In this document: piece by piece, positions 5,152 to 14,386 of the stretch
How the letters are laid out: every line of letters starts with the position of its first letter
How positions within the stretch are numbered: the first letter of the stretch is position 1
UHGV virus genome: UHGV-0160852
Source of the DNA: a virus
Direction: 5' to 3' (one strand)
Length of the DNA: 16,276 bases
Translations under genes and position numbers: made by a program
The notes under the pieces: model-generated
Database searches by the model: none
What the model was told of the DNA's origin: nothing
Seen by the model: the letters and a program-made list of their open reading frames with translations, nothing else

Positions 5152-5624
5152 TCTGCCTCCAGCACTATTTTCAACTCAAACGGAACATCTCCTCCGCAAT
5201 AGCAGAGCGGGCCAAGGTCAGACATGAGGCTCCACAGGGTCATTGACGTATAGCCATTTTCGTCTGTTACCGGGGGCGAAAAGTCCCCGAAGATCCCCGG
5301 GTGCTGGATTCGATTCTGCTCGTGTTGTTTTTCCAAATGTCTGAGGGAAACTTCATTAAGTTTCACTTTTACGATGCTGTTGAGATTGACCGATATTTCT
5401 CTGGCCAACAGCGAAGGGGTGATACTGATACCGCGAGAAACCCCGCGGGTGATTGTGATAACACCCTTTTTCTCCAACGCCTTGAGGTGCGTTGCTGCTG
5501 CATTGGGGGACCGGCACCCCAGCATGCCGGTCAGTTCGTAAGTTGTAGGCGGAAAACCATGTATACGCTGATATTCGATCAGGAGGTCCAGTACCTCCTG
5601 CTGCCTTAAGGTCAAGGAAGTCAT
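5148..5624 (-). CDS. LexA N-terminal DNA-binding-domain homolog lacking the S24 peptidase domain
   Basis: MTSLTLRQQEVLDLLIEYQRIHGFPPTTYELTGMLGCRSPNAAATHLKALEKKGVITITRGVSRGI parallels E. coli LexA residues 1-70 ([66 protein letters not shown]); the C-terminal ~85 aa has no Ser/Lys peptidase signature. Start at the ATG at 5624 (GAGGAG upstream, ATGA overlap with the MTase stop); alternative ATG at 5651. Confidence 0.8.
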   Translation of the reverse strand: MTSLTLRQQEVLDLLIEYQRIHGFPPTTYELTGMLGCRSPNAAATHLKALEKKGVITITRGVSRGISITPSLLAREISVNLNSIVKVKLNEVSLRHLEKQHEQNRIQHPGIFGDFSPPVTDENGYTSMTLWSLMSDLGPLCYCGGDVPFELKIVLEAE

Positions 5625-7591
5625 GCTGCCTGCTCCTCTCTGTTCACGCACATTTCGGGTAAGTTGGCGCGAACCAGCGCTTCGGCGAACGGCGGCGGGA
5701 CGGCATTGCCACAGCGCGCAACCTGCTTATCTTTCGCGTATTTCACGCCGCGGTAATCCTGGTCAATGATGTACCACTCGGGGAAGCCCTGCGCCCGGTA
5801 AAGTTCGTGTGGCTGCAGCATGCGCATGCCGATATCAACGATGCGGTAAGTCACTCCGCCGATTTCCACCAGACCGGTGCATTCCTCTCCGCAGTATTCC
5901 TGCAGGAACGACAGCACCTGCTGCGCTCGCTCTTCGTCATAGTCCTCGACTGCCAGAGTCGTTTTAACCTCGCCTACGTGCTGGCCACCAGCAGTGATAG
6001 TCGGCATCGGCTCGTCAGTGCGCTGGCCATCGCGGCATGTACCACGGAGCTTGATCAGATGAGACGTAACCATTGCGGCATCAGCCTTTGTCGTCATGGT
6101 TTGCAATGGCTCGCTAACGTCACGTGGCCTGCTCTGCCCAGCGCGACCGCCAACACCAACAATCTGAGCAGTAACCAGCGCATGATGATCGACGGTAGTA
6201 ACTGAATGAGCTGGTTCATCCAAGTCAATACCGGCGCCCTGATAATTCCCGCCATAGTGTTTCGCCAGGAATGCGGATACCAGTTGCGATTTACCGCCGC
6301 CGCCCGCGGTGATTGTTGCGCTAGGTTCATCCGCCCGGTGTCCGATGCTTGCGCCGAACTGCCGGGCGATAACCGGAGCGACGACACAGGCGCGCGATTC
6401 TTTCAGGATGGTGTGAGCGGGTTTATCGAGAGGGCGTGGTTTAGCCTGGTACTCGCTGCCGCCATTGCCAGCCAGGAACGGCGCCAGCTCTGCTTCAACA
6501 ATACCCAGAGCGTGACCATTCCCGCCCGGGCGTTTTGCGGTACCGGCCGTCACCGTCGGCAACGGATCGGTGACTTCCTGCCCGGTAGCTCCGGTTCGGA
6601 ATTTTGTCAGATGAGGTACCGCAATTGCGTAGCCGTGGGTTTTCGTAATCGTCTGTAGCGGATCGTCCAGCGCCTGTCCCCGGAAACAGTCGTAATTGCC
6701 ACGTGTCGTTGTGTGATTGCACTTCACAATGAATGGCGAAGCACTTTCGATAACAAAGCGCTGAATGCCGCGGGCAATCCGTTTTAGCGTATTCTCAGCC
6801 AGTGACTTTTTGCGACCGAAGATGCTCGGCGCGGGGATTGACCAGTCTATGCATTCCGCAGCTGTACGCCACGGCTCAAGCTGGCCCGCCAGCACGGCGG
6901 CAGACTTCGGATCCCCGTGCGTGGCTTCCGGCCAGACTATCGGTTTCCCGTCCCGGCGCATCACCATGAAGAACCGCTTACGGATGGTCGGCGCGCCATA
7001 ATCGCAGGCGCGCAGCTCGCGAAAATCGACGACATAACCCAGCCCGGCAATTAAGCGCTGGGCCTGCTCGCTATCCGGTGAAAACTCCAGAAACTCGCAA
7101 CACTCCACCAGTGCAGGATGATCTGCTGGAATACCGGTGGTAAGCATCCCGACAAATGCATTGAAAGTTTCACCGATGCGTGCCGGATCCGGGCGCATTT
7201 CTGCCGCGAGTAACGGGCCCCACGTTTTAAACTCTTCGACGTTTTCCAGCATCATGACTCGCGGGCCAACATCCAGCGCCCAACGAATGACGATCCATGC
7301 CAGCCCTCGAATAGCTTTCTCTACTGGTTTAGCACCTTTCGCTTTAGAAAAGTGACGACAGTCAGGCGAGAACCATGCCAGGCCGACAGGCTTGCCACTG
7401 GTAGCGGCTAATGGGGATACATCAAACACACTTTCGCAATAGTGAAGCGTGTCGGGATGGTTAGTGCGGTGCATAGCAACGGCGTTAACATCGTGGTTAA
7501 TAGCAATATCAACACTGCGCCCTATTGCCAGTTCAATACCTGTACTGGCGCCACCGCCGCCAGCGAAATTATCGACAATAATCTCACGCAT
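5621..7591 (-). CDS. DNA cytosine-5 methyltransferase with an unusually long, internally repetitive variable region
   Basis: Motif I FAGGGG, PC motif FSPDCRHFSKAKG, ENV motif MMLENVEEF, motif VIII-like TIRKRFFMV and C-terminal motif X CGNAVPPP. Between the catalytic halves about 350 aa carry seven repeats of (D/E)-x-P-x-x-T-[IVM]-T. Confidence 0.93.
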   Translation of the reverse strand: MREIIVDNFAGGGGASTGIELAIGRSVDIAINHDVNAVAMHRTNHPDTLHYCESVFDVSPLAATSGKPVGLAWFSPDCRHFSKAKGAKPVEKAIRGLAWIVIRWALDVGPRVMMLENVEEFKTWGPLLAAEMRPDPARIGETFNAFVGMLTTGIPADHPALVECCEFLEFSPDSEQAQRLIAGLGYVVDFRELRACDYGAPTIRKRFFMVMRRDGKPIVWPEATHGDPKSAAVLAGQLEPWRTAAECIDWSIPAPSIFGRKKSLAENTLKRIARGIQRFVIESASPFIVKCNHTTTRGNYDCFRGQALDDPLQTITKTHGYAIAVPHLTKFRTGATGQEVTDPLPTVTAGTAKRPGGNGHALGIVEAELAPFLAGNGGSEYQAKPRPLDKPAHTILKESRACVVAPVIARQFGASIGHRADEPSATITAGGGGKSQLVSAFLAKHYGGNYQGAGIDLDEPAHSVTTVDHHALVTAQIVGVGGRAGQSRPRDVSEPLQTMTTKADAAMVTSHLIKLRGTCRDGQRTDEPMPTITAGGQHVGEVKTTLAVEDYDEERAQQVLSFLQEYCGEECTGLVEIGGVTYRIVDIGMRMLQPHELYRAQGFPEWYIIDQDYRGVKYAKDKQVARCGNAVPPPFAEALVRANLPEMCVNREEQAA

Positions 7592-8537
7592 GAGCGGTCC
7601 CCCTCATGCTGCCGACCAGCCCACCAGCAACGGTGATGATTTCGCTGGTGGGCACCCGCTCCAGCCACAACTGGTTAATGTGGGCCTTCAGCTTGTTCTG
7701 CTGGGAGAATTCCAGATCCCCTGCGCCTTGTACCTGTCCGAAGATGAGACCAACTTCCAGTGGCCAGATCCGGGATTCAGCCTCAGCTAATGATGCAACC
7801 GCATCGGGGATGATCACTTCAGGAGACTGAACTGGCGAAGCTGGTGGCAGGAATTTTGCTGCAGCAAACTCAGCCAAAGCCATACTTGCGCGCCCTTTCG
7901 CCTCAAGCTCTATACGATCGATATAGCTAAAGCGCTCTCCGCACCATGTCTTATCAAATATCACGATTGCACCAGCAAAGAAGGCGCTGGTGGGTTTCTG
8001 TTTATCATCCGCCGGCACAAACCAGGTCGGGAGATCGAAACCAATACGACCACGGATAAAACACACATGATCGGCATCTTCTGGCCACCATGTCTCGCTT
8101 GTCGCTGACTTCAGCAGGAAAACATAGCGCCCGCCCTTTTCTCGCTGCTCAGATGCATAACTCATGATGTGAGTCATGCCGGTGACTGCCTGTTTTTCGT
8201 GGTACTGAGAACGGCTATACGGTGGATTACCAAATCCTGCGCCACCAAGTTCTTCAAGGCGAGCGGACCAGTCCTGTGTTAAAGCGTTATCTTCAGCGGT
8301 ATACCATGCGGGGCATTTTGCATTGCTGTCGTCTGCAAACAGGTCCAGTACAAGCGGGCCAAACATAGCGTTAACGCCCCAGAACAGCAGATCAGGGGTA
8401 CGCCATTGATCCCCGACTTCTTTTAAATAATGCGCACTACGCTGGCGCTGTTCCTCAAGTGCCAGGCAATAAGGGCTGACGGTTTTTGTTAAAGTTTGCT
8501 CTTCTGCGGTCATAGCTTCTTGTACTTCCTGACTCAT
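7584..8537 (-). CDS. phage Dam-like DNA N6-adenine methyltransferase (NPPY motif) with C-terminal extension
   Basis: WRTPDLLFWGVNAMFGPLVLDLFADDSNAKCPAWYT and GFGNPPYSR match the phage N6-adenine methyltransferase (Dam) family; 8-bp overlap with the C5-MTase start. Confidence 0.8.
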   Translation of the reverse strand: MSQEVQEAMTAEEQTLTKTVSPYCLALEEQRQRSAHYLKEVGDQWRTPDLLFWGVNAMFGPLVLDLFADDSNAKCPAWYTAEDNALTQDWSARLEELGGAGFGNPPYSRSQYHEKQAVTGMTHIMSYASEQREKGGRYVFLLKSATSETWWPEDADHVCFIRGRIGFDLPTWFVPADDKQKPTSAFFAGAIVIFDKTWCGERFSYIDRIELEAKGRASMALAEFAAAKFLPPASPVQSPEVIIPDAVASLAEAESRIWPLEVGLIFGQVQGAGDLEFSQQNKLKAHINQLWLERVPTSEIITVAGGLVGSMRGTAHA

Positions 8538-10423: not shown

Positions 10424-10975
10424 TTATTTCTCCATACACAAAGATTTATTCGCCACGACGCCCGGAGCTGCACACTCGCGGGCGTCACTCTTTTCTGGCT
10501 GACAAAAGACACGGAACAGTAACGTTAAATGTTCCTGCCATTTCGCCATCACCTGATAGCTGTTCTCCTCAATTTGCTCGCGTTCTGCCTGGTCAATTAC
10601 CCCATCAGCTGTAGCTTTACGCAGGTACTGCGAGTGTTTTCCTATCCACTCAATGGACTCCATAAGACGCTGGTTAATATCTGCGTTGTCCACGTCTTCA
10701 ATATCTGCCAACGGAACAAAAACGCCGTTCGAGTGACGCGCTATAGCATTGGCAATATGATTTGACCCACCAGCACGCTGCAGCACCATTGCCCAGCCGA
10801 GAGGGAAAATCTGATCACCATCGGCACGTAAACGGTTAAACAATGCGTTTTCAGTAACGCCCAGCCACTCCGCAGCTTCCACGTAACCACCGTCCAAATC
10901 AGTGATAGTTTTTTTGATAGCGGCCACCAGCCATGCCGGCTGCTTATCTACTTTCCATTCAGGTTCGATACCCAC
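10424..10975 (-). CDS. cII-position regulatory protein (possible CII/CP76- or YdaT-like), HTH-like segment
   Basis: 183-aa ORF between cro and the replication gene; GTG start at 10975 with AAGGGG 6 nt upstream; segment AAEWLGVTENALFNRL is HTH-like. Family assignment is by position and size only. Confidence 0.6.
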   Translation of the reverse strand: MGIEPEWKVDKQPAWLVAAIKKTITDLDGGYVEAAEWLGVTENALFNRLRADGDQIFPLGWAMVLQRAGGSNHIANAIARHSNGVFVPLADIEDVDNADINQRLMESIEWIGKHSQYLRKATADGVIDQAEREQIEENSYQVMAKWQEHLTLLFRVFCQPEKSDARECAAPGVVANKSLCMEK

Positions 10976-11019: not shown

Positions 11020-11220
11020 TTATTGTTTGGAATAGATATCAGGTCGAAGCTCATACTTGGTGATCGCGCCCGAGGTGTTTTTTTCCAGTTTTTTAGCCAG
11101 ATCAAACCCGGCTTTTTTGTAACCGTTGAAAACCAGACGTAGATAACCGGGAGTAGACCCAACCTTTTCAGCTAATGTGCTCTGTTGCTCTTTGGTTAAT
11201 GAATCCCAGAATTCTTTCAT
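11020..11220 (-). CDS. cro: Cro-like / YdaS-family HTH repressor
   Basis: 66 aa from the ATG at 11220 with AGGAGG 8 nt upstream; LAEKVGSTPGYLRLVFNGYKKAGFDLAKKLEKNTSGAITKYELRPDIY is a Cro/YdaS-type HTH; transcribed divergently from the repressor gene. Confidence 0.8.
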   Translation of the reverse strand: MKEFWDSLTKEQQSTLAEKVGSTPGYLRLVFNGYKKAGFDLAKKLEKNTSGAITKYELRPDIYSKQ

Positions 11221-11223
11221 GTA

Positions 11224-11301
11224 TGTACCTCCTGTGTACATATTACACGAAAGCAATGAACCTTCAAGGTACTTGTACCTTTAAGGTACATGCGGTTAAA
11301 T
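11224..11301. promoter_or_regulatory. OR-like operator/promoter region: three 17-bp TGTACC-N5-GGTACA-type operators with divergent PR and PRM
   Basis: Operators TGTACCTCCTGTGTACA (11224-11240), TGAACCTTCAAGGTACT (11257-11273) and perfect TGTACCTTTAAGGTACA (11274-11290). Minus-strand PR: -35 TTGAAG, 16-bp spacer, -10 TAATAT, then the cro SD. Plus-strand PRM: -35 TTGTAC (11273-11278), 17-bp spacer, -10 TTAAAT (11296-11301), implying a leaderless cI mRNA starting at the ATG at 11308. Confidence 0.7.
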
Positions 11302-11307
11302 TTCAAT

Positions 11308-11982
11308 ATGAAAACAATCCAGGAAATCAGGCGGTTAAACGCCAGAAAATTGCGCGATGGTGTAGGCGGGAATATCTTCTTCGCCAACATGATTGATCGT
11401 GAGCCGACTCAAACAAGCCGGTTCATGGGTGACGGTGCGACAAAGAACATTGGTGATGCTATGGCAAGACACATTGAAAAATGTTTCGACTTGCCAACTG
11501 GTTGGTTAGATCAGGAGCACCAAACTACCAATGTAGCTAAAACTCCTGACGTCTCTGATACAAGCAGGGACATCACCATGGTTCCGGTAATATCCTGGGT
11601 ACAAGCAGGAGCATGGACAGAAGCTGGCTATGCTGAGGTTGATTTGAATAGTACAGAAAACTATCCCTGTCCTGTCCCCTGTGGGCCAATGACATATATT
11701 CTTCGTGTTATTGGTGATTCAATGATCGATGAATACAGGCCTGGAGATATGATTTTTGTTGATCCAGAGATAGCTGCAGTACACGGAGATGATGTCATTG
11801 CATTGATGCATGATTCTGGTGAGACGACATTTAAGCGGCTTATTGAGGATGCAGGACAACGTTACCTTAAAGCTCTGAACTCGAACTGGCCAGAGCCGTA
11901 CATTAAAATTAATGGCAATTGTTCAATTATTGGTACTGTGATTTTTTCTGGTAAACCCAGGCGGTATAGAACAAAAATTTGA
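11308..11982 (+). CDS. cI: CI-like prophage repressor with C-terminal S24 (LexA-like) autopeptidase domain
   Basis: C-terminal RVIGDSMIDEYRPGDMIFVDP (catalytic Ser in GDSM) and ETTFKRL (Lys) are the S24 dyad; divergent from cro across operators. Start at 11308 preferred (leaderless from PRM); track start at 11290 lies inside an operator. Confidence 0.9.
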   Translation: MKTIQEIRRLNARKLRDGVGGNIFFANMIDREPTQTSRFMGDGATKNIGDAMARHIEKCFDLPTGWLDQEHQTTNVAKTPDVSDTSRDITMVPVISWVQAGAWTEAGYAEVDLNSTENYPCPVPCGPMTYILRVIGDSMIDEYRPGDMIFVDPEIAAVHGDDVIALMHDSGETTFKRLIEDAGQRYLKALNSNWPEPYIKINGNCSIIGTVIFSGKPRRYRTKI

Positions 11983-11996
11983 CCGTTAACAACAGA

Positions 11997-12019
11997 CCTG
12001 CTTCGGCAGGTTTTTTTAT
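11997..12019 (+). terminator. rho-independent terminator after the repressor gene
   Basis: Stem ACCTGC / GCAGGT with TTCG tetraloop followed by TTTTTTT, 15 bp after the cI stop. Confidence 0.8.
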
Positions 12020-12022
12020 ACT

Positions 12023-12056
12023 TGACAATGTACCCATTCGGTACATAATGTACCTA
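12023..12056 (+). promoter_or_regulatory. PL-like early promoter with OL operator: -35 TTGACA, 16-bp spacer, -10 CATAAT, overlapped by TGTACCCATTCGGTACA
   Basis: Near-consensus sigma70 hexamers at 12023-12028 and 12045-12050; the 17-bp palindrome at 12030-12046 has the same TGTACC-N5-GGTACA architecture as the OR sites, plus an extra GTACC half-site at 12051-12055. Confidence 0.65.
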
Positions 12057-12117
12057 AAAGAAACAGCGGACAGGTAGGATGATTCGCTAAGCAACATACC
12101 AGTAGAGGTATCTCAAG

Positions 12118-12207
12118 ATGGACAAAGCATACGAAGAATATTTTGAAGGTCTGGCGGAAGGTGAAGAAGCTCTGAGCTATGCCGAATTCGTCGAAGCACT
12201 TTCCTAA
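12118..12207 (+). CDS. possible 29-aa acidic peptide (MDKAYEEYFEGLAEGEEALSYAEFVEALS)
   Basis: First ATG after the predicted PL start site, with AGAGGT about 9 nt upstream; below the ORF-track length cutoff. No family support. Confidence 0.2.
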   Translation: MDKAYEEYFEGLAEGEEALSYAEFVEALS

Positions 12208-12921
12208 ACATGGCGAAAGCCGACAGCGTTGAAGGCGATTTTCTCGGTTTGCGCGCTAAACAATAGCGGGGGTGAAATCGGGGCGGAGAAGCAGAATCCG
12301 CGATGTCGGGACTTGATACTTCCGGCCATACCAACAAGCCGAATGATCGCGTAACGATCCTTTGCATCTGCCCCGGCGAGGTGGCGCCGCCGGACCGGGG
12401 TAGATGAATCGTAAACAACATGAAAGCGCATTCCATCTTCCATCGGTCGTGGGGATCGGTTTGTAACTGAAGGAGTGCGCTTCCAGTTGTGAACGGCAAT
12501 ATTCACAACCGTTGTATGGCACATGCAGCGTTAGCAGCCCGGATGGTTCCCTTGAAGTTCCATGCGCTATCCGGACAACTGGAATGTGCAAGCCAAGTGT
12601 TTCAGGCACGACGTGCGCCCCACCAGCGCGGCGAAATGGTGTGACGCCCGGGAAGAGTCCGGGACACAACAGGTAAGAGCACTCCCGCCACACGATGCTG
12701 AAACCCAAGCGCCATGTGGATGCGCCGAAAAGCTACGACGGGGCGTTGGTAGAAGATCGGAGTGCTCTTTCCGTTGTGGTAATTGCGGCTATGCGCACGT
12801 GACGAGCTAACCCGTTCATGGAATGCGTTTCCGGGCAGTGTGACGTCGTCGGTTATTGGCTAAACCCGGCAGGTGGAGGCACCACCGCCACAACTTAGTT
12901 AACTGTGCTGTGTGTAGTCTT

Positions 12922-12991
12922 GGCGGTTATCCAGTTTTCCACTATCCAAAGGAGGAAGAGGATAACGTTCTGATGGATAACCGCCCTTTTT
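12922..12991 (+). terminator. long hairpin (11-bp stem GGCGGTTATCC / GGATAACCGCC) followed by CTTTTT; possible attenuator
   Basis: Perfect 11-bp inverted repeat with a ~42-nt loop; the loop holds a second copy of GGATAACG that could pair with the 5' arm instead, giving mutually exclusive structures. Confidence 0.35.
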
Positions 12992-13096
12992 ACACAATAC
13001 AAAAGAGCATCACCGGGCGACGGGCTCATTACCCAATCCACCCGGGCGGCATCCAAACCGCAGGTGCTCTTCTGTGTTGTGTACGGAGAAATTCCC

Positions 13097-13115
13097 GGCG
13101 GTGGCAGCCGCCTTT
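13097..13115 (+). terminator. short GC hairpin (GGCGG-TG / GGCA tetraloop) followed by TTT, about 15 nt upstream of the first early gene
   Basis: 6-bp G/C stem with only three trailing T; a weak terminator or structural element overlapping the approach to the gene's ribosome-binding site. Confidence 0.3.
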
Positions 13116-13130
13116 CGAGAGGGTAAAACC

Positions 13131-13502
13131 ATGAGTAATGATCGCATGACAGTCGTGCCCGATTTCCTGGGTGAACTGGACGCCGGCGTATTCATGAACA
13201 AGATTGCGGCGGCTCTTAATACCACCGCGCTCGGCGTTCTGAACAATGGCAACAAAGGCAAGGTTGTCCTCACCTTTGATTTTGAGCGTATGGGCAACTC
13301 TGTTGAAGAGAAGCGCGTCAAGATCAAGCACAAGCTGAACTACAGCACCCCAACTCCCCGCGGCAAAGCGTCGGAAGAGGACACCACCGAAACACCAATG
13401 TGGGTTAACAAAGGCGGCAAGCTCACAATCCTGCAAGAGGATCAGGGGCAACTCTTCGGTATCACCGGCGCGGTGGACGGAAAGCTTAAAGCGGCTCAGT
13501 GA
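13131..13502 (+). CDS. hypothetical early protein (123 aa), first gene of the PL operon
   Basis: ATG at 13131 with GAGAGGG 7 nt upstream; protein-like composition. Size and position resemble yfdP of the E. coli CPS-53 prophage, from memory only. Confidence 0.75.
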   Translation: MSNDRMTVVPDFLGELDAGVFMNKIAAALNTTALGVLNNGNKGKVVLTFDFERMGNSVEEKRVKIKHKLNYSTPTPRGKASEEDTTETPMWVNKGGKLTILQEDQGQLFGITGAVDGKLKAAQ

Positions 13503-13558
13503 ACCGCACGTACAAATTCACTGATACCACTTCGCTAATCAGTTAATAAGGAATTTTT

Positions 13559-14386
13559 ATGTCTCAGTTAGACAGCGGTACTTTTCAGCAGGTTAAAGAC
13601 CTCGTGCTTTCCGGGTATCACCTGAACGATATCCACGGCCTGGCCTGTCCAACCGCCCTGCTACCGCAGAATACCAACGTTGAAAGCCTGGAGCGTTTTG
13701 CTCTTGAGCGTTTCCGTTTCCGCGGTGCCATGGACACGACCAGCATTGATGATTTCGTTCGCTATTCTGTCGCTTATGCCCAGGAAGAAGAAAAAGCACG
13801 TTGCTTTATTGATGCCGATAACATGCTGGCTCGTTCTATCTTCAATATCGGCACGTTGGACAACCCAGGCCACGCTGATAACGTCGCCTCGATCAAGCTT
13901 AAGAAGACAGCGCCCTTCCGCGCGTTACTGGCGATCAACGGCGATCACCTTAATCAGAAGCAAATCGCCGAATGGCTCGAAGACTGGAGTGACTATCTCA
14001 CTGCGTTCGATTCCGACGGACAGACAATGAAAATTGCACAGGCAGCGCAGGCGGTTCGCCGTGTCACTATCCAGCAAACTAATGCCGCCGATCATGAAGA
14101 CGGTGATTTCAGCGGCAAAAAATCGCTGATGCAAAGTATCGAAGCCAGCAGTAAAGATGTTATGCCGGTCGCGTTTGAGTTTAAGTGTGTACCCTATGAA
14201 GGCCTGGGCGAACGTCGTTTCAGTCTTCGCAATAGCCTGCTCAAAAGTAGCGATCCGGTATTCGTCCTGCGTATCGTCCAGCTGGAAGCCCTGGAAGAAG
14301 CGATCGCCAATGAGTTCCGTGATCTGCTGGTTGGCAAGTTCGACGGCAAGCCGGTAGAAACCTTTATCGGCAACTTCAAGGCCTGA
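13559..14386 (+). CDS. YfdQ-like (DUF2303-type) prophage protein
   Basis: 275-aa ORF with AAGGAA about 7 nt upstream; sits immediately before an HD-domain gene, matching the yfdQ-yfdR order and sizes I recall for the CPS-53 prophage. Not verifiable without a search. Confidence 0.8.
   Translation: MSQLDSGTFQQVKDLVLSGYHLNDIHGLACPTALLPQNTNVESLERFALERFRFRGAMDTTSIDDFVRYSVAYAQEEEKARCFIDADNMLARSIFNIGTLDNPGHADNVASIKLKKTAPFRALLAINGDHLNQKQIAEWLEDWSDYLTAFDSDGQTMKIAQAAQAVRRVTIQQTNAADHEDGDFSGKKSLMQSIEASSKDVMPVAFEFKCVPYEGLGERRFSLRNSLLKSSDPVFVLRIVQLEALEEAIANEFRDLLVGKFDGKPVETFIGNFKA

Follow-up and report, generated by a model that had tools for sequence, protein, structure and literature searches.

A probable lambda-type CI/Cro immunity switch of the SfV group in virus genome UHGV-0160852

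In phage lambda, the cI and cro genes are divergent, three 17-bp, partly palindromic operators lie between them, and more operators are located at the PL promoter behind cI. Lambda CI combines an N-terminal HTH domain with a C-terminal S24 domain and carries an Ala-Gly site for cleavage as well as a Ser/Lys dyad, the middle operator is placed ~42-43 bp upstream of PRM, and the cI mRNA from PRM is leaderless. Lambdoid CI and Cro share operators, which in lambda are of the TATCACCGC type. In phage SfV, the GenBank record (U82619.2) marks positions 26377-26445 as a 'putative operator region', and the PR operon encodes a further immunity system with a P4/P1-like C4 antisense RNA and isrK (the 'orf37 immunity region'). 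The nearest solved N-terminal DNA-binding domain to the one described below is that of Rep from the Salmonella phage SPC32H (PDB 5D50), which was solved in complex with an antirepressor.

The window, meaning the whole analysed stretch of 16,276 nucleotides from virus genome UHGV-0160852, has the lambda-like arrangement of genes, protein domains and operators set out above, with operators whose sequence is unrelated to those of lambda. We take the region, with a probability of about 85%, to be a lambda-type CI/Cro immunity switch of a lambdoid (SfV/e14/CPS-53-like) prophage, in which the CI-like protein would bind the operators. Its genes and terminator are as follows.

10424..10975, minus strand: gene for a CII-like (YmfL/CP76 family) regulator, which follows cro in the PR operon (Pfam PF06892, E=6e-9; PHROG 101 'CII-like transcriptional activator', E=3e-61)
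11020..11220, minus strand: cro-like gene for a small HTH protein of 66 aa (Pfam YdaS_toxin/HTH_3; PHROG 35 'transcriptional repressor')
11308..11982, plus strand: cI-like repressor gene, 224 aa, with an N-terminal HTH domain and a C-terminal S24 autopeptidase domain
11994..12020, plus strand: intrinsic terminator after cI, a GC-rich hairpin with an 8-bp stem followed by a T-run, conserved in relatives and annotated as a terminator in SfV

The cro and cI genes diverge from a gap of 87 bp. In the C-domain of CI, Pfam finds the S24 family (PF00717, E=2e-25), and a sequence search of the PDB matches it to the C-domain of lambda cI with 36-38% identity. A100-G101 (WVQAGAW), S138 (GDSM) and K176 (TFKRL) are conserved in an alignment of 30 CI sequences, so the protein has the Ala-Gly site and Ser/Lys dyad predicted for self-cleavage of the RecA-stimulated type, and the C-domain would be a RecA-sensitive, self-cleaving one. 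For the N-domain, Pfam finds no HTH model, even at E=10. In the AlphaFold model of CI (pLDDT 82.7), N-domain helices are formed by residues 4-19, 22-28, 33-40 and 50-59, and Foldseek matches the model with lambda repressor and with the N-domain of SPC32H Rep, the latter over 75-79 residues with 35-36% identity and an rmsd of 2.1-3.6 Å. This likeness concerns the N-domain, and the C-terminal part of SPC32H Rep is unlike the S24 domain of the window CI. The model and the ~35% identity to the Rep N-domain point to an HTH formed by helices 22-28 and 33-40.

Five palindromic sites of the type TGTACC-N5-GGTACA accompany these genes.

11224-11240: OR site 1, TGTACCTCCTGTGTACA, TGTACC-TCCTG-TGTACA, 1 mismatch; spans the predicted PR start (~11233) and the DNA encoding the cro Shine-Dalgarno sequence
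11257-11273: OR site 2, TGAACCTTCAAGGTACT, TGAACC-TTCAA-GGTACT, 2 mismatches; overlaps the predicted PR -35
11274-11290: OR site 3, TGTACCTTTAAGGTACA, TGTACC-TTTAA-GGTACA, exact palindrome; overlaps the predicted PRM -35 and spacer
12029-12045: OL site 1 (OL1), TGTACCCATTCGGTACA, TGTACC-CATTC-GGTACA, exact palindrome; between the PL -35 and -10
12049-12065: OL site 2 (OL2), TGTACCTAAAAGAAACA, TGTACC-TAAAA-GAAACA, weak right half; spans the end of the PL -10 to about +10

A first-pass annotation of this DNA had reported three OR sites and a single OL site sharing one palindrome. The four sites are present where they were reported and their type stands, although only two of them are exact (11274 and 12029), and OL2, which is weaker and recurs with unchanged offset in almost every relative, was missed. 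The central N5 of OR site 1 had been given as CCTCC; the actual N5 is TCCTG, and CCTCC (11228-11232) begins in the final two bases of the left half-site and runs through the first three of the spacer. The claim that the cro ribosome-binding site lies inside an operator is borne out, since the complement of 11228-11232 is the Shine-Dalgarno sequence GGAGG, within OR site 1, the cro ATG (11220..11218, minus strand) being 7 nt away. Extension of the consensus to 19 bp (ATGTACC..GGTACAT) was rejected, as the flanks are accounted for by neighbouring promoter hexamers and are asymmetric at OR site 3.

The palindromes are not randomly distributed. With up to two mismatches, five matches are found in the 16,276-nt window against 0.27 expected, a number attained in none of 200 shuffles, and all five are confined to the two intergenic stretches beside the cI-like gene, with none elsewhere in the 16 kb. 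When three mismatches are allowed the signal drowns in noise (10 matches against 4.2 expected), a lack of enrichment that would suit an origin of the sites by chance. The same sites might instead be a by-product of promoter and Shine-Dalgarno sequences, since the Shine-Dalgarno sequence and the -35 hexamer that OR sites 1 and 2 partly cover would be conserved in any case, or restriction or methylation motifs centred on GTAC, since this half-site core is itself palindromic and two DNA methyltransferase genes are present in the window. The count at two mismatches and its confinement to the immunity region speak against chance, as does the constant register and spacing of the operators across more than 100 related loci, which are not independent samples. 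At OR site 3 and OL1 the arms are invariant across these loci while the spacers vary freely, and no other signal accounts for all 12 arm positions. Chance, by-product and modification motif are together very improbable explanations.

The pattern of conservation is that of half-sites which are fixed and spacers which drift, as seen in 59 distinct, in-register related OR sequences, from which the column conservation was computed; for the PL/OL side, 76 distinct relatives were used. The OR sites of the relatives are placed at constant offsets of -84, -51 and -34 from the cI ATG, and the OL sites at +45 to +49 and +65 to +69 after the cI stop. Among the 59 OR sequences, the half-site columns carry 2.0 bits, those of site 3 being at 1.88-2.0 bits against 0.35-0.98 bits for its N5. 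In site 1, TGTACCTC and TACA are invariant and the next C is retained in 58 of the 59, while in site 2 both departures from the consensus are themselves invariant. Nearly all relatives have OL2 at a distance of 20 bp from OL1; its TGTACC never varies and its (A/C)AACA is conserved. Spacer bases are retained only where they double as another signal: in site 1 as the cro Shine-Dalgarno sequence, which is kept family-wide as far as the Salinicola homologues (53% CI identity), and in site 2 as CAA, the complement of the TTG of the PR -35. The proposal that the palindromes are repressor operators is thus supported comparatively: they flank a divergent pair of cI-like and cro-like genes, they overlap promoter-like hexamers, and their half-sites are invariant in the 59 distinct relatives.

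The predicted promoter elements are as follows.

11240..11245, minus strand: predicted PR -10, TAATAT; the TTCGTGTAATAT block is strongly conserved outside the operators
11262..11267, minus strand: predicted PR -35, TTGAAG, separated from the -10 by 16 bp; the TTG is never altered in relatives
11273..11278, plus strand: predicted PRM -35, TTGTAC, invariant in relatives, with a 17-bp spacer to the -10
11296..11301, plus strand: predicted PRM -10, TTAAAT (family consensus TTTAAT), at exactly -12 to -7 from the A of the cI ATG
12022..12049, plus strand: PL-like promoter, TTGACA-16-CATAAT, 11 of 12 matches, directed away from cI, with a predicted start at ~12056

PR has 8 of 12 consensus matches, and both PR and PRM are weak and were missed by a promoter scan at a threshold of 9/12; their hexamers are conserved in relatives. 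Both PL hexamers are invariant in the 76 distinct relatives. The start of cI had first been placed at ATG 11290, giving an ORF of 230 aa, but this ATG is absent from SfV and most relatives; gene callers in public assemblies choose ATG 11308. Measured from the A of this codon, the PRM hexamers are conserved at -35 to -30 and -12 to -7, where the -10 columns have T in 58 of 59 distinct relatives at -12 and A, A and T in all 59 at -9 to -7. The base at -6 is moderately conserved (1.1 bits) and those at -5 to -1 are unconserved (0.1-0.6 bits). No Shine-Dalgarno sequence precedes ATG 11308, and a similar 4-mer occurs in just 4 of 30 distinct cI upstream segments, too distant at -17/-18. The -10-like hexamer in this position and the missing Shine-Dalgarno sequence support, by comparison of relatives, the earlier suggestion that the predicted PRM would yield a leaderless cI mRNA, with transcription probably starting at the A of ATG 11308.

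How the switch works is what we infer from here on, and this applies to binding by CI, to the start points of the promoters, to activation and to any looping or cooperativity. A CI dimer would bind the 17-bp operators. From OR site 1 on the PR start and OR site 2 on the PR -35 it would shut off the lytic promoter PR, and from OL1 and OL2 it would shut off PL. Lambda CI activates PRM from a position like that of OR site 2, whose centre is ~43 bp upstream of the predicted PRM start, while OR site 3, over the PRM -35 and spacer, is suitably placed for CI autorepression and for shut-off by Cro. The predicted leader of the cro mRNA is merely ~13-15 nt, and because it is so short the DNA encoding its Shine-Dalgarno sequence falls inside OR site 1. 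This overlap is a matter of sequence economy, as CI binds DNA and not mRNA.

Could the palindromes act in RNA, as attenuator or terminator hairpins, or serve as SOS boxes for host LexA? Each site could fold into a 6-bp stem closed by a 5-nt loop, but the predicted transcripts begin downstream of OL1 and of most of OR, the sites are not followed by T-runs, and their stem positions do not co-vary but stay invariant, which is characteristic of contact with protein and not of pairing in RNA. Rfam, applied to the window at the gathering threshold and to 11900-13600 at E up to 5, gave no credible RNA. A match to STnc370 (31 bits vs 54) is explained by the opposite strand of the cI terminator, and one to DicF is weak at 16.5 bits. 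The thought of LexA comes from public records, in which the repressor is called 'LexA family', a label that reflects the S24 domain only. The LexA box is CTGT-N8-ACAG, a 16-bp dyad, whereas the sites in the window are TGT-N11-ACA and so have the wrong spacing (11 vs 8). Neither role is at all likely.

A protein other than CI, whether Cro alone, the CII-like YmfL-family protein or a host factor, might also be the main or only ligand of the palindromes, with CI acting elsewhere. The lack of a Pfam HTH match in the CI N-domain would agree with this, and a homologous 66-aa Cro is found beside the operators at every family locus, so that co-inheritance alone cannot separate Cro from CI. In EcPF16, however, cro is truncated and yet cI and all five sites remain, and sites are also present at the PL-like promoter behind cI, a classical CI target. 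The CI recognition helix co-varies with the operator: EPTQxSR is invariant at every locus with TGTACC operators and altered in homologues with other palindromes. The Kushneria homologue has the helix EPPAASR and a TTAACC-N5-GGTTAA-like palindrome, and the Acinetobacter homologue has GQSQTSQ and a TTACC-N5-GGTAA-like one, both operator motifs being tentative as they come from single-locus palindrome lists. Since CI and Cro share operators in lambdoid phages, binding by Cro would be an addition to binding by CI and not an alternative to it. A non-CI regulator as the principal ligand is therefore improbable, if less so than a role in RNA or for LexA, and CI is retained as the likely one.

Among described phages, SfV is the closest in its immunity module. 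Its CI is 85% identical to that of the window, as is that of SfIV, and the recognition helix EPTQTSR and the HTH segment IDREPTQTSRFMGDGAT are identical. Cro is homologous, the operator half-sites and their offsets from cI are the same, and so are the terminator and the PL/OL layout. The annotated 'putative operator region' of SfV coincides with the three OR sites to within plus or minus 1 bp, so the operator type was already annotated there, a point that the first-pass annotation omitted. Sites 1 and 2 of SfV are further from the consensus (TGTACC..ATACA and TGAACC..GATACT). The first-pass proposal that an immunity group could be assigned holds, and the shared CI type and half-sites support placing the module, from its sequence alone, in the SfV group. 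C4 (82 bits) and isrK (64 bits) were detected in SfV, and the window has no Rfam match to either; their RNA immunity is an accessory feature of SfV that does not define CI specificity.

The module with its operators is found also in a Stx2c phage and in Edwardsiella phage EPP-1, which with SfV are the phages whose operators were inspected. The cI type, at 80-85% identity, occurs more widely, in Stx2c-converting phages, in PhiR29/PhiR49 and in SfIV, cdtI, Ayreon, 2H10 and Hafnia phage yong2, the latter five matched by cI alone. At the DNA level the window is absent from the phage collection except for ~100 bp, and a megablast search with the module, run on phages and on E. coli genomes, gave marginal matches only, so that a protein-level search was needed. 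The searchable literature yielded no operator sequences for any SfV-type member, and likewise no footprints, binding measurements or mapped transcription starts.

Despite the same parts, the geometry differs from that of lambda. The OR centres are 33 bp (sites 1-2) and 17 bp (sites 2-3, abutting) apart and those of the OL pair 20 bp, against 24 and 23 bp in lambda. Site 1 is placed at +1 and over the Shine-Dalgarno sequence instead of over the -10 and spacer as in lambda, and the exact palindrome at OR is the PRM-proximal site, again unlike lambda. OL has two sites rather than three, the OL-OR distance is ~0.8 kb rather than 2.4 kb, and there is no evident N gene. With this geometry, the affinity order and pairwise cooperativity of lambda are not simply transferable. 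Three of the features are invariant in more than 100 loci, namely the exact palindrome over PRM and not PR, the abutting sites 2 and 3, and site 1 on the transcription start and Shine-Dalgarno sequence, and for this reason it is conceivable, though doubtful, that the logic of the switch itself differs from that of lambda. CI would then regulate its own gene mainly through site 3, and PR would be repressed by a cooperative pair of sites 1 and 2 with a long spacer or by an OR-OL loop over ~0.8 kb. Sites 2 and 3, with centres 17 bp apart, are on roughly opposite faces of the helix, and sites 1 and 2 are three helical turns (33 bp) apart.

The finding is a sound if ordinary one that opens no new question, the region illustrates how codes may overlap, and its value is mainly one of annotation, in that the prophage can be placed in the SfV immunity group without experiment. 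It also gives, from its five sites, a comparatively validated operator consensus for a repressor type that occurs across Enterobacterales, including medically relevant phages such as the Stx2c-converting, cdtI and Shigella serotype-converting ones. If the non-lambda logic were true, the switch would be a distinct and conserved solution to bistability, of relevance to the induction of Stx2c phages, which have the same module.

The palindrome TGTACC-N5-GGTACA, at two or fewer mismatches, occurs five times in the 16.3-kb window and at no other position in it, against 0.27 occurrences expected, and this count was matched by none of 200 dinucleotide-preserving shuffles. When three mismatches are allowed, 10 matches are found against 4.2 expected, which is noise level. 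A motif search thus recovers the four 17-mers, three at OR and one at OL, proposed in the first-pass annotation, which had overlooked a second OL site at 12049-12065. The three OR sites lie between divergent cro and cI genes and the two OL sites beyond cI:

11224-11240, OR site 1, TGTACCTCCTGTGTACA, one mismatch to the palindrome
11257-11273, OR site 2, TGAACCTTCAAGGTACT, two mismatches
11274-11290, OR site 3, TGTACCTTTAAGGTACA, exact
12029-12045, OL1, TGTACCCATTCGGTACA, exact
12049-12065, OL2, TGTACCTAAAAGAAACA, two mismatches
11308-11982, plus strand, cI-like ORF, 224 aa, C-terminal S24 peptidase domain (Pfam E=2e-25)
11220-11020, minus strand, cro-like ORF, 66-aa HTH protein (YdaS/HTH_3; PHROG 'transcriptional repressor')
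11994-12013 plus T-run, intrinsic terminator after cI

The layout mirrors that of lambda (N<-PL ... cI<-PRM/OR/PR->cro). Genes for a CII-like (CP76/YmfL) protein, for replication and for a Dam-like methylase follow downstream of cro. The genes to the right of cI resemble yfdP, yfdQ and yfdR, an arrangement also seen in CPS-53/KpLE1 and SfV. The first ORF past PL (12118-12207) encodes a 29-aa acidic peptide, MDKAYEEYFEGLAEGEEALSYAEFVEALS; several public assemblies of this prophage type likewise annotate it as a gene. The minus strand carries adjacent DNA methyltransferase genes (5621-7591 and 7584-8537), one for a C5-cytosine methylase of 656 aa and the other for a Dam-like N6-adenine methylase. 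The core of the operator half-site, GTAC, is a 4-bp palindrome in its own right.

Searching with the CI protein provided 57 loci in reference genomes and 80 of more than 587 IMG/VR matches. In every locus whose CI is at least 53% identical, OR sites are located at fixed positions -84, -51 and -34 from the cI ATG, with an upstream shift of one to three bases in a few loci. The OL sites are located +45 to +49 and +65 to +69 past the cI stop in most loci and farther downstream in a few. These recurring sites span Klebsiella, Escherichia, Pantoea, Serratia, Rahnella and Proteus. In the Salinicola loci the three OR sites are retained, but a site of OL type was not detected beyond cI. Chance, or an artefact of GTAC motifs, is an unlikely explanation of the sites.

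In a stack of 59 distinct in-register sequences upstream of cI, the twelve half-site columns of site 3 carry 1.88-2.0 bits versus 0.35-0.98 bits for its five spacer columns. In site 1, TGTACCTC and TACA are invariant and the following C is kept in 58 of the 59, and site 2 has the pattern TGAACC-nnCAA-GGTACT, in which both non-consensus bases are themselves fixed. Conserved spacer bases are restricted to those with a second role: TCC of the site 1 spacer forms the cro GGAGG with the CC before it, and CAA of the site 2 spacer supplies the TTG of the predicted PR -35. The PRM -35, TTGTAC, consists of the final base of site 2 and the first five of site 3. The OL consensus of 76 distinct sequences is TTGACA-A-TGTACC-nnnnn-GGTACA-TAA-TGTACC-nnnAG-(A/C)AACA. 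The stacked loci are mutually related and their conservation counts are not independent, but the invariance of the arms is meaningful because the freely varying spacers show enough divergence. Fixed arms with free spacers would be the pattern expected from a dimeric HTH protein touching two half-sites. Palindromes could also mark RNA hairpins or LexA boxes, both unlikely here; an RNA stem is expected to show compensatory change, whereas the opposite is seen, with invariant arms and free spacers.

The operators overlap the predicted promoters:

11267..11262, minus strand, predicted PR -35, TTGAAG, 16-bp spacer to the -10
11245..11240, minus strand, predicted PR -10, TAATAT, start near A11233
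11273-11278, plus strand, predicted PRM -35, TTGTAC, 17-bp spacer to the -10
11296-11301, plus strand, predicted PRM -10, TTAAAT, family consensus TTTAAT
TTGACA(12022)-16-CATAAT(12049), predicted PL, reading away from cI directly past the terminator, 11/12 consensus

The PR-region block TTCGTGTAATAT is strongly conserved in the 59-sequence stack. Relative to the predicted PR start, site 1 would cover about -7 to +10 and site 2 about -24 to -40. The predicted cro leader is just 13-15 nt, so the cro Shine-Dalgarno sequence falls within an operator as originally proposed; the minus strand reads TGTACACAGGAGGTACATACATG, with GGAGG inside site 1 and 7 nt ahead of the cro ATG (11220). The N5 of this site was read as CCTCC but is TCCTG, and CCTCC (11228-11232) spans the boundary of half-site and spacer. 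Since CI works on DNA and not on the mRNA ribosome-binding site, the overlap is a matter of compaction.

The proposed leaderless cI mRNA is supported by the predicted PRM -10 hexamer, which occupies exactly -12 to -7 when the A of ATG 11308 is +1, by the unconserved positions -5 to -1 (0.1-0.6 bits; 1.1 bits at -6), and by the rarity of Shine-Dalgarno-like 4-mers, present in 4 of 30 distinct segments, all at -17/-18. An alternative cI start at ATG 11290 was rejected; it is unconserved, for example in SfV, and gene callers choose 11308. The centre of site 2 is ~43 bp upstream of the predicted PRM start, the position that lambda OR2 holds relative to its PRM. Site 3 has its centre near -26 and would block PRM. 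With a predicted PL start near 12056, OL1 would cover about -28 to -12 and OL2 about -8 to +10. Centre-to-centre distances are 33 bp for sites 1-2, 17 bp for sites 2-3 and 20 bp for OL1-OL2, unlike the 24 and 23 bp of lambda, and therefore the lambda cooperativity scheme cannot simply be assumed.

The AlphaFold model of CI (mean pLDDT 82.7, from a 30-sequence alignment) has N-domain helices at 4-19, 22-28, 33-40 and 50-59, a disordered linker at 74-85 and a beta-rich C-domain. The nearest solved structures, matched by Foldseek to the C-domain, are the lambda repressor C-domain (36-38% identity), UmuD and LexA. The N-domain matches no Pfam HTH model, and its Foldseek match is the Rep repressor of Salmonella phage SPC32H (5D50; 35-36% over 75-79 residues). 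The cleavage site and Ser/Lys dyad of lambda have conserved counterparts here in A100-G101, S138 and K176; CI is therefore expected to undergo SOS-inducible self-cleavage. The putative recognition helix, EPTQ(T/I/V/A)SR, is present in every TGTACC-type locus, including those with 53-57% overall CI identity, while homologues at 39-47% identity have other helices and lack TGTACC sites. In Kushneria (EPPAASR) and Acinetobacter (GQSQTSQ), the upstream dyads are tentatively TTAACC-N5-GGTTAA-like and TTACC-N5-GGTAA-like, retaining the inner ACC/GGT with outer bases changed. This co-variation of helix and operator ties the sites to CI as its predicted binding sites. Cro is homologous across all family loci, as expected if CI and Cro read the same sites; the sites are unlikely to be bound by Cro exclusively or by a different regulator.

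The ~0.9 kb separating the PL/OL region from the yfdP-like gene (12208-13073, up to ~13130) has no credible ORF and no PHROG match on either strand, and RefSeq E. coli relatives carry no annotation in the equivalent stretch. GC content is 55-60% here versus 40-47% in the immunity region. Its modules (roughly 12207-12415, 12415-12681, 12656-12789, 12758-13048 and 12987-13073) recombine in differing combinations among related loci, and pieces occur at ~80% identity on ~92-kb non-mobilizable E. coli plasmids. The stretch may be a long structured leader, or small RNAs and terminators, of the early-left operon. A long stable hairpin at 12911-12996 (GGCGGTTATCCA ... TGGATAACCGCC, then CTTTTT; -36.4 kcal/mol, z = -4.4 against shuffles, 0 of 200 equally stable) overlaps a weak DicF-like Rfam match (16.5 bits, E=2) and is a candidate terminator or small-RNA 3' end in the PL transcript.

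A protein search of the phage collection found the CI type of the window at 85% identity in SfV, SfIV, cdtI, about a dozen Stx2c-converting phages, Ayreon, 2H10 and PhiR29/PhiR49, with 80% for Hafnia phage yong2 and 75% for Edwardsiella phage EPP-1. The same sites at the same offsets are present in SfV, an Stx2c phage and EPP-1. The SfV record (U82619.2) marks the cI terminator and a 'putative operator region' at 26377-26445, whose bounds agree to within 1 bp with those of the three OR sites; the architecture had thus already been predicted at the time of SfV sequencing. The searchable literature yielded neither binding nor transcription-start data for this operator type. The PR operon of SfV also has a P4/P1-like C4 antisense RNA (82 bits) and isrK (64 bits) in its 'orf37 immunity region' (minus strand, 2070-2258 of locus L139). 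The window has no C4 antisense RNA, isrK or orf37 equivalent. The two phages thus have CI immunity in common, whereas the second, RNA-based immunity is found in SfV only, and the phage of the window apparently depends solely on CI/Cro.

In the E. coli EcPF16 prophage (L001, 5979-6047), cro is cut short at ~20 codons, with a KilA-N pseudogene fused to it, and cI and all five operator sites are intact; this looks like a locked-in, defective prophage still expressing its repressor. A prophage of an E. coli ST536 strain (L140, 1719-2660) has another cI/cro cassette, whose products are a LexA-family protein of 208 aa and a Cro of 71 aa, with flanks as in the window (a YmfL-family gene to one side, YfdQ to the other, and part of the non-coding stretch); it is an example of the immunity module being swapped as a cassette.

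The original interpretation is supported by strong comparative evidence, and the immunity group can be assigned from sequence as a predicted lambda-type CI/Cro switch of the SfV immunity type. The assignment has modest practical value, as Stx2c, cdtI and Shigella serotype-converting phages are under the control of this module and their operators seemingly lack experimental characterisation. The conserved non-lambda geometry, with an exact palindrome on PRM, abutting sites 2 and 3, and 33 bp between sites 1 and 2, is the sole feature that might repay study.
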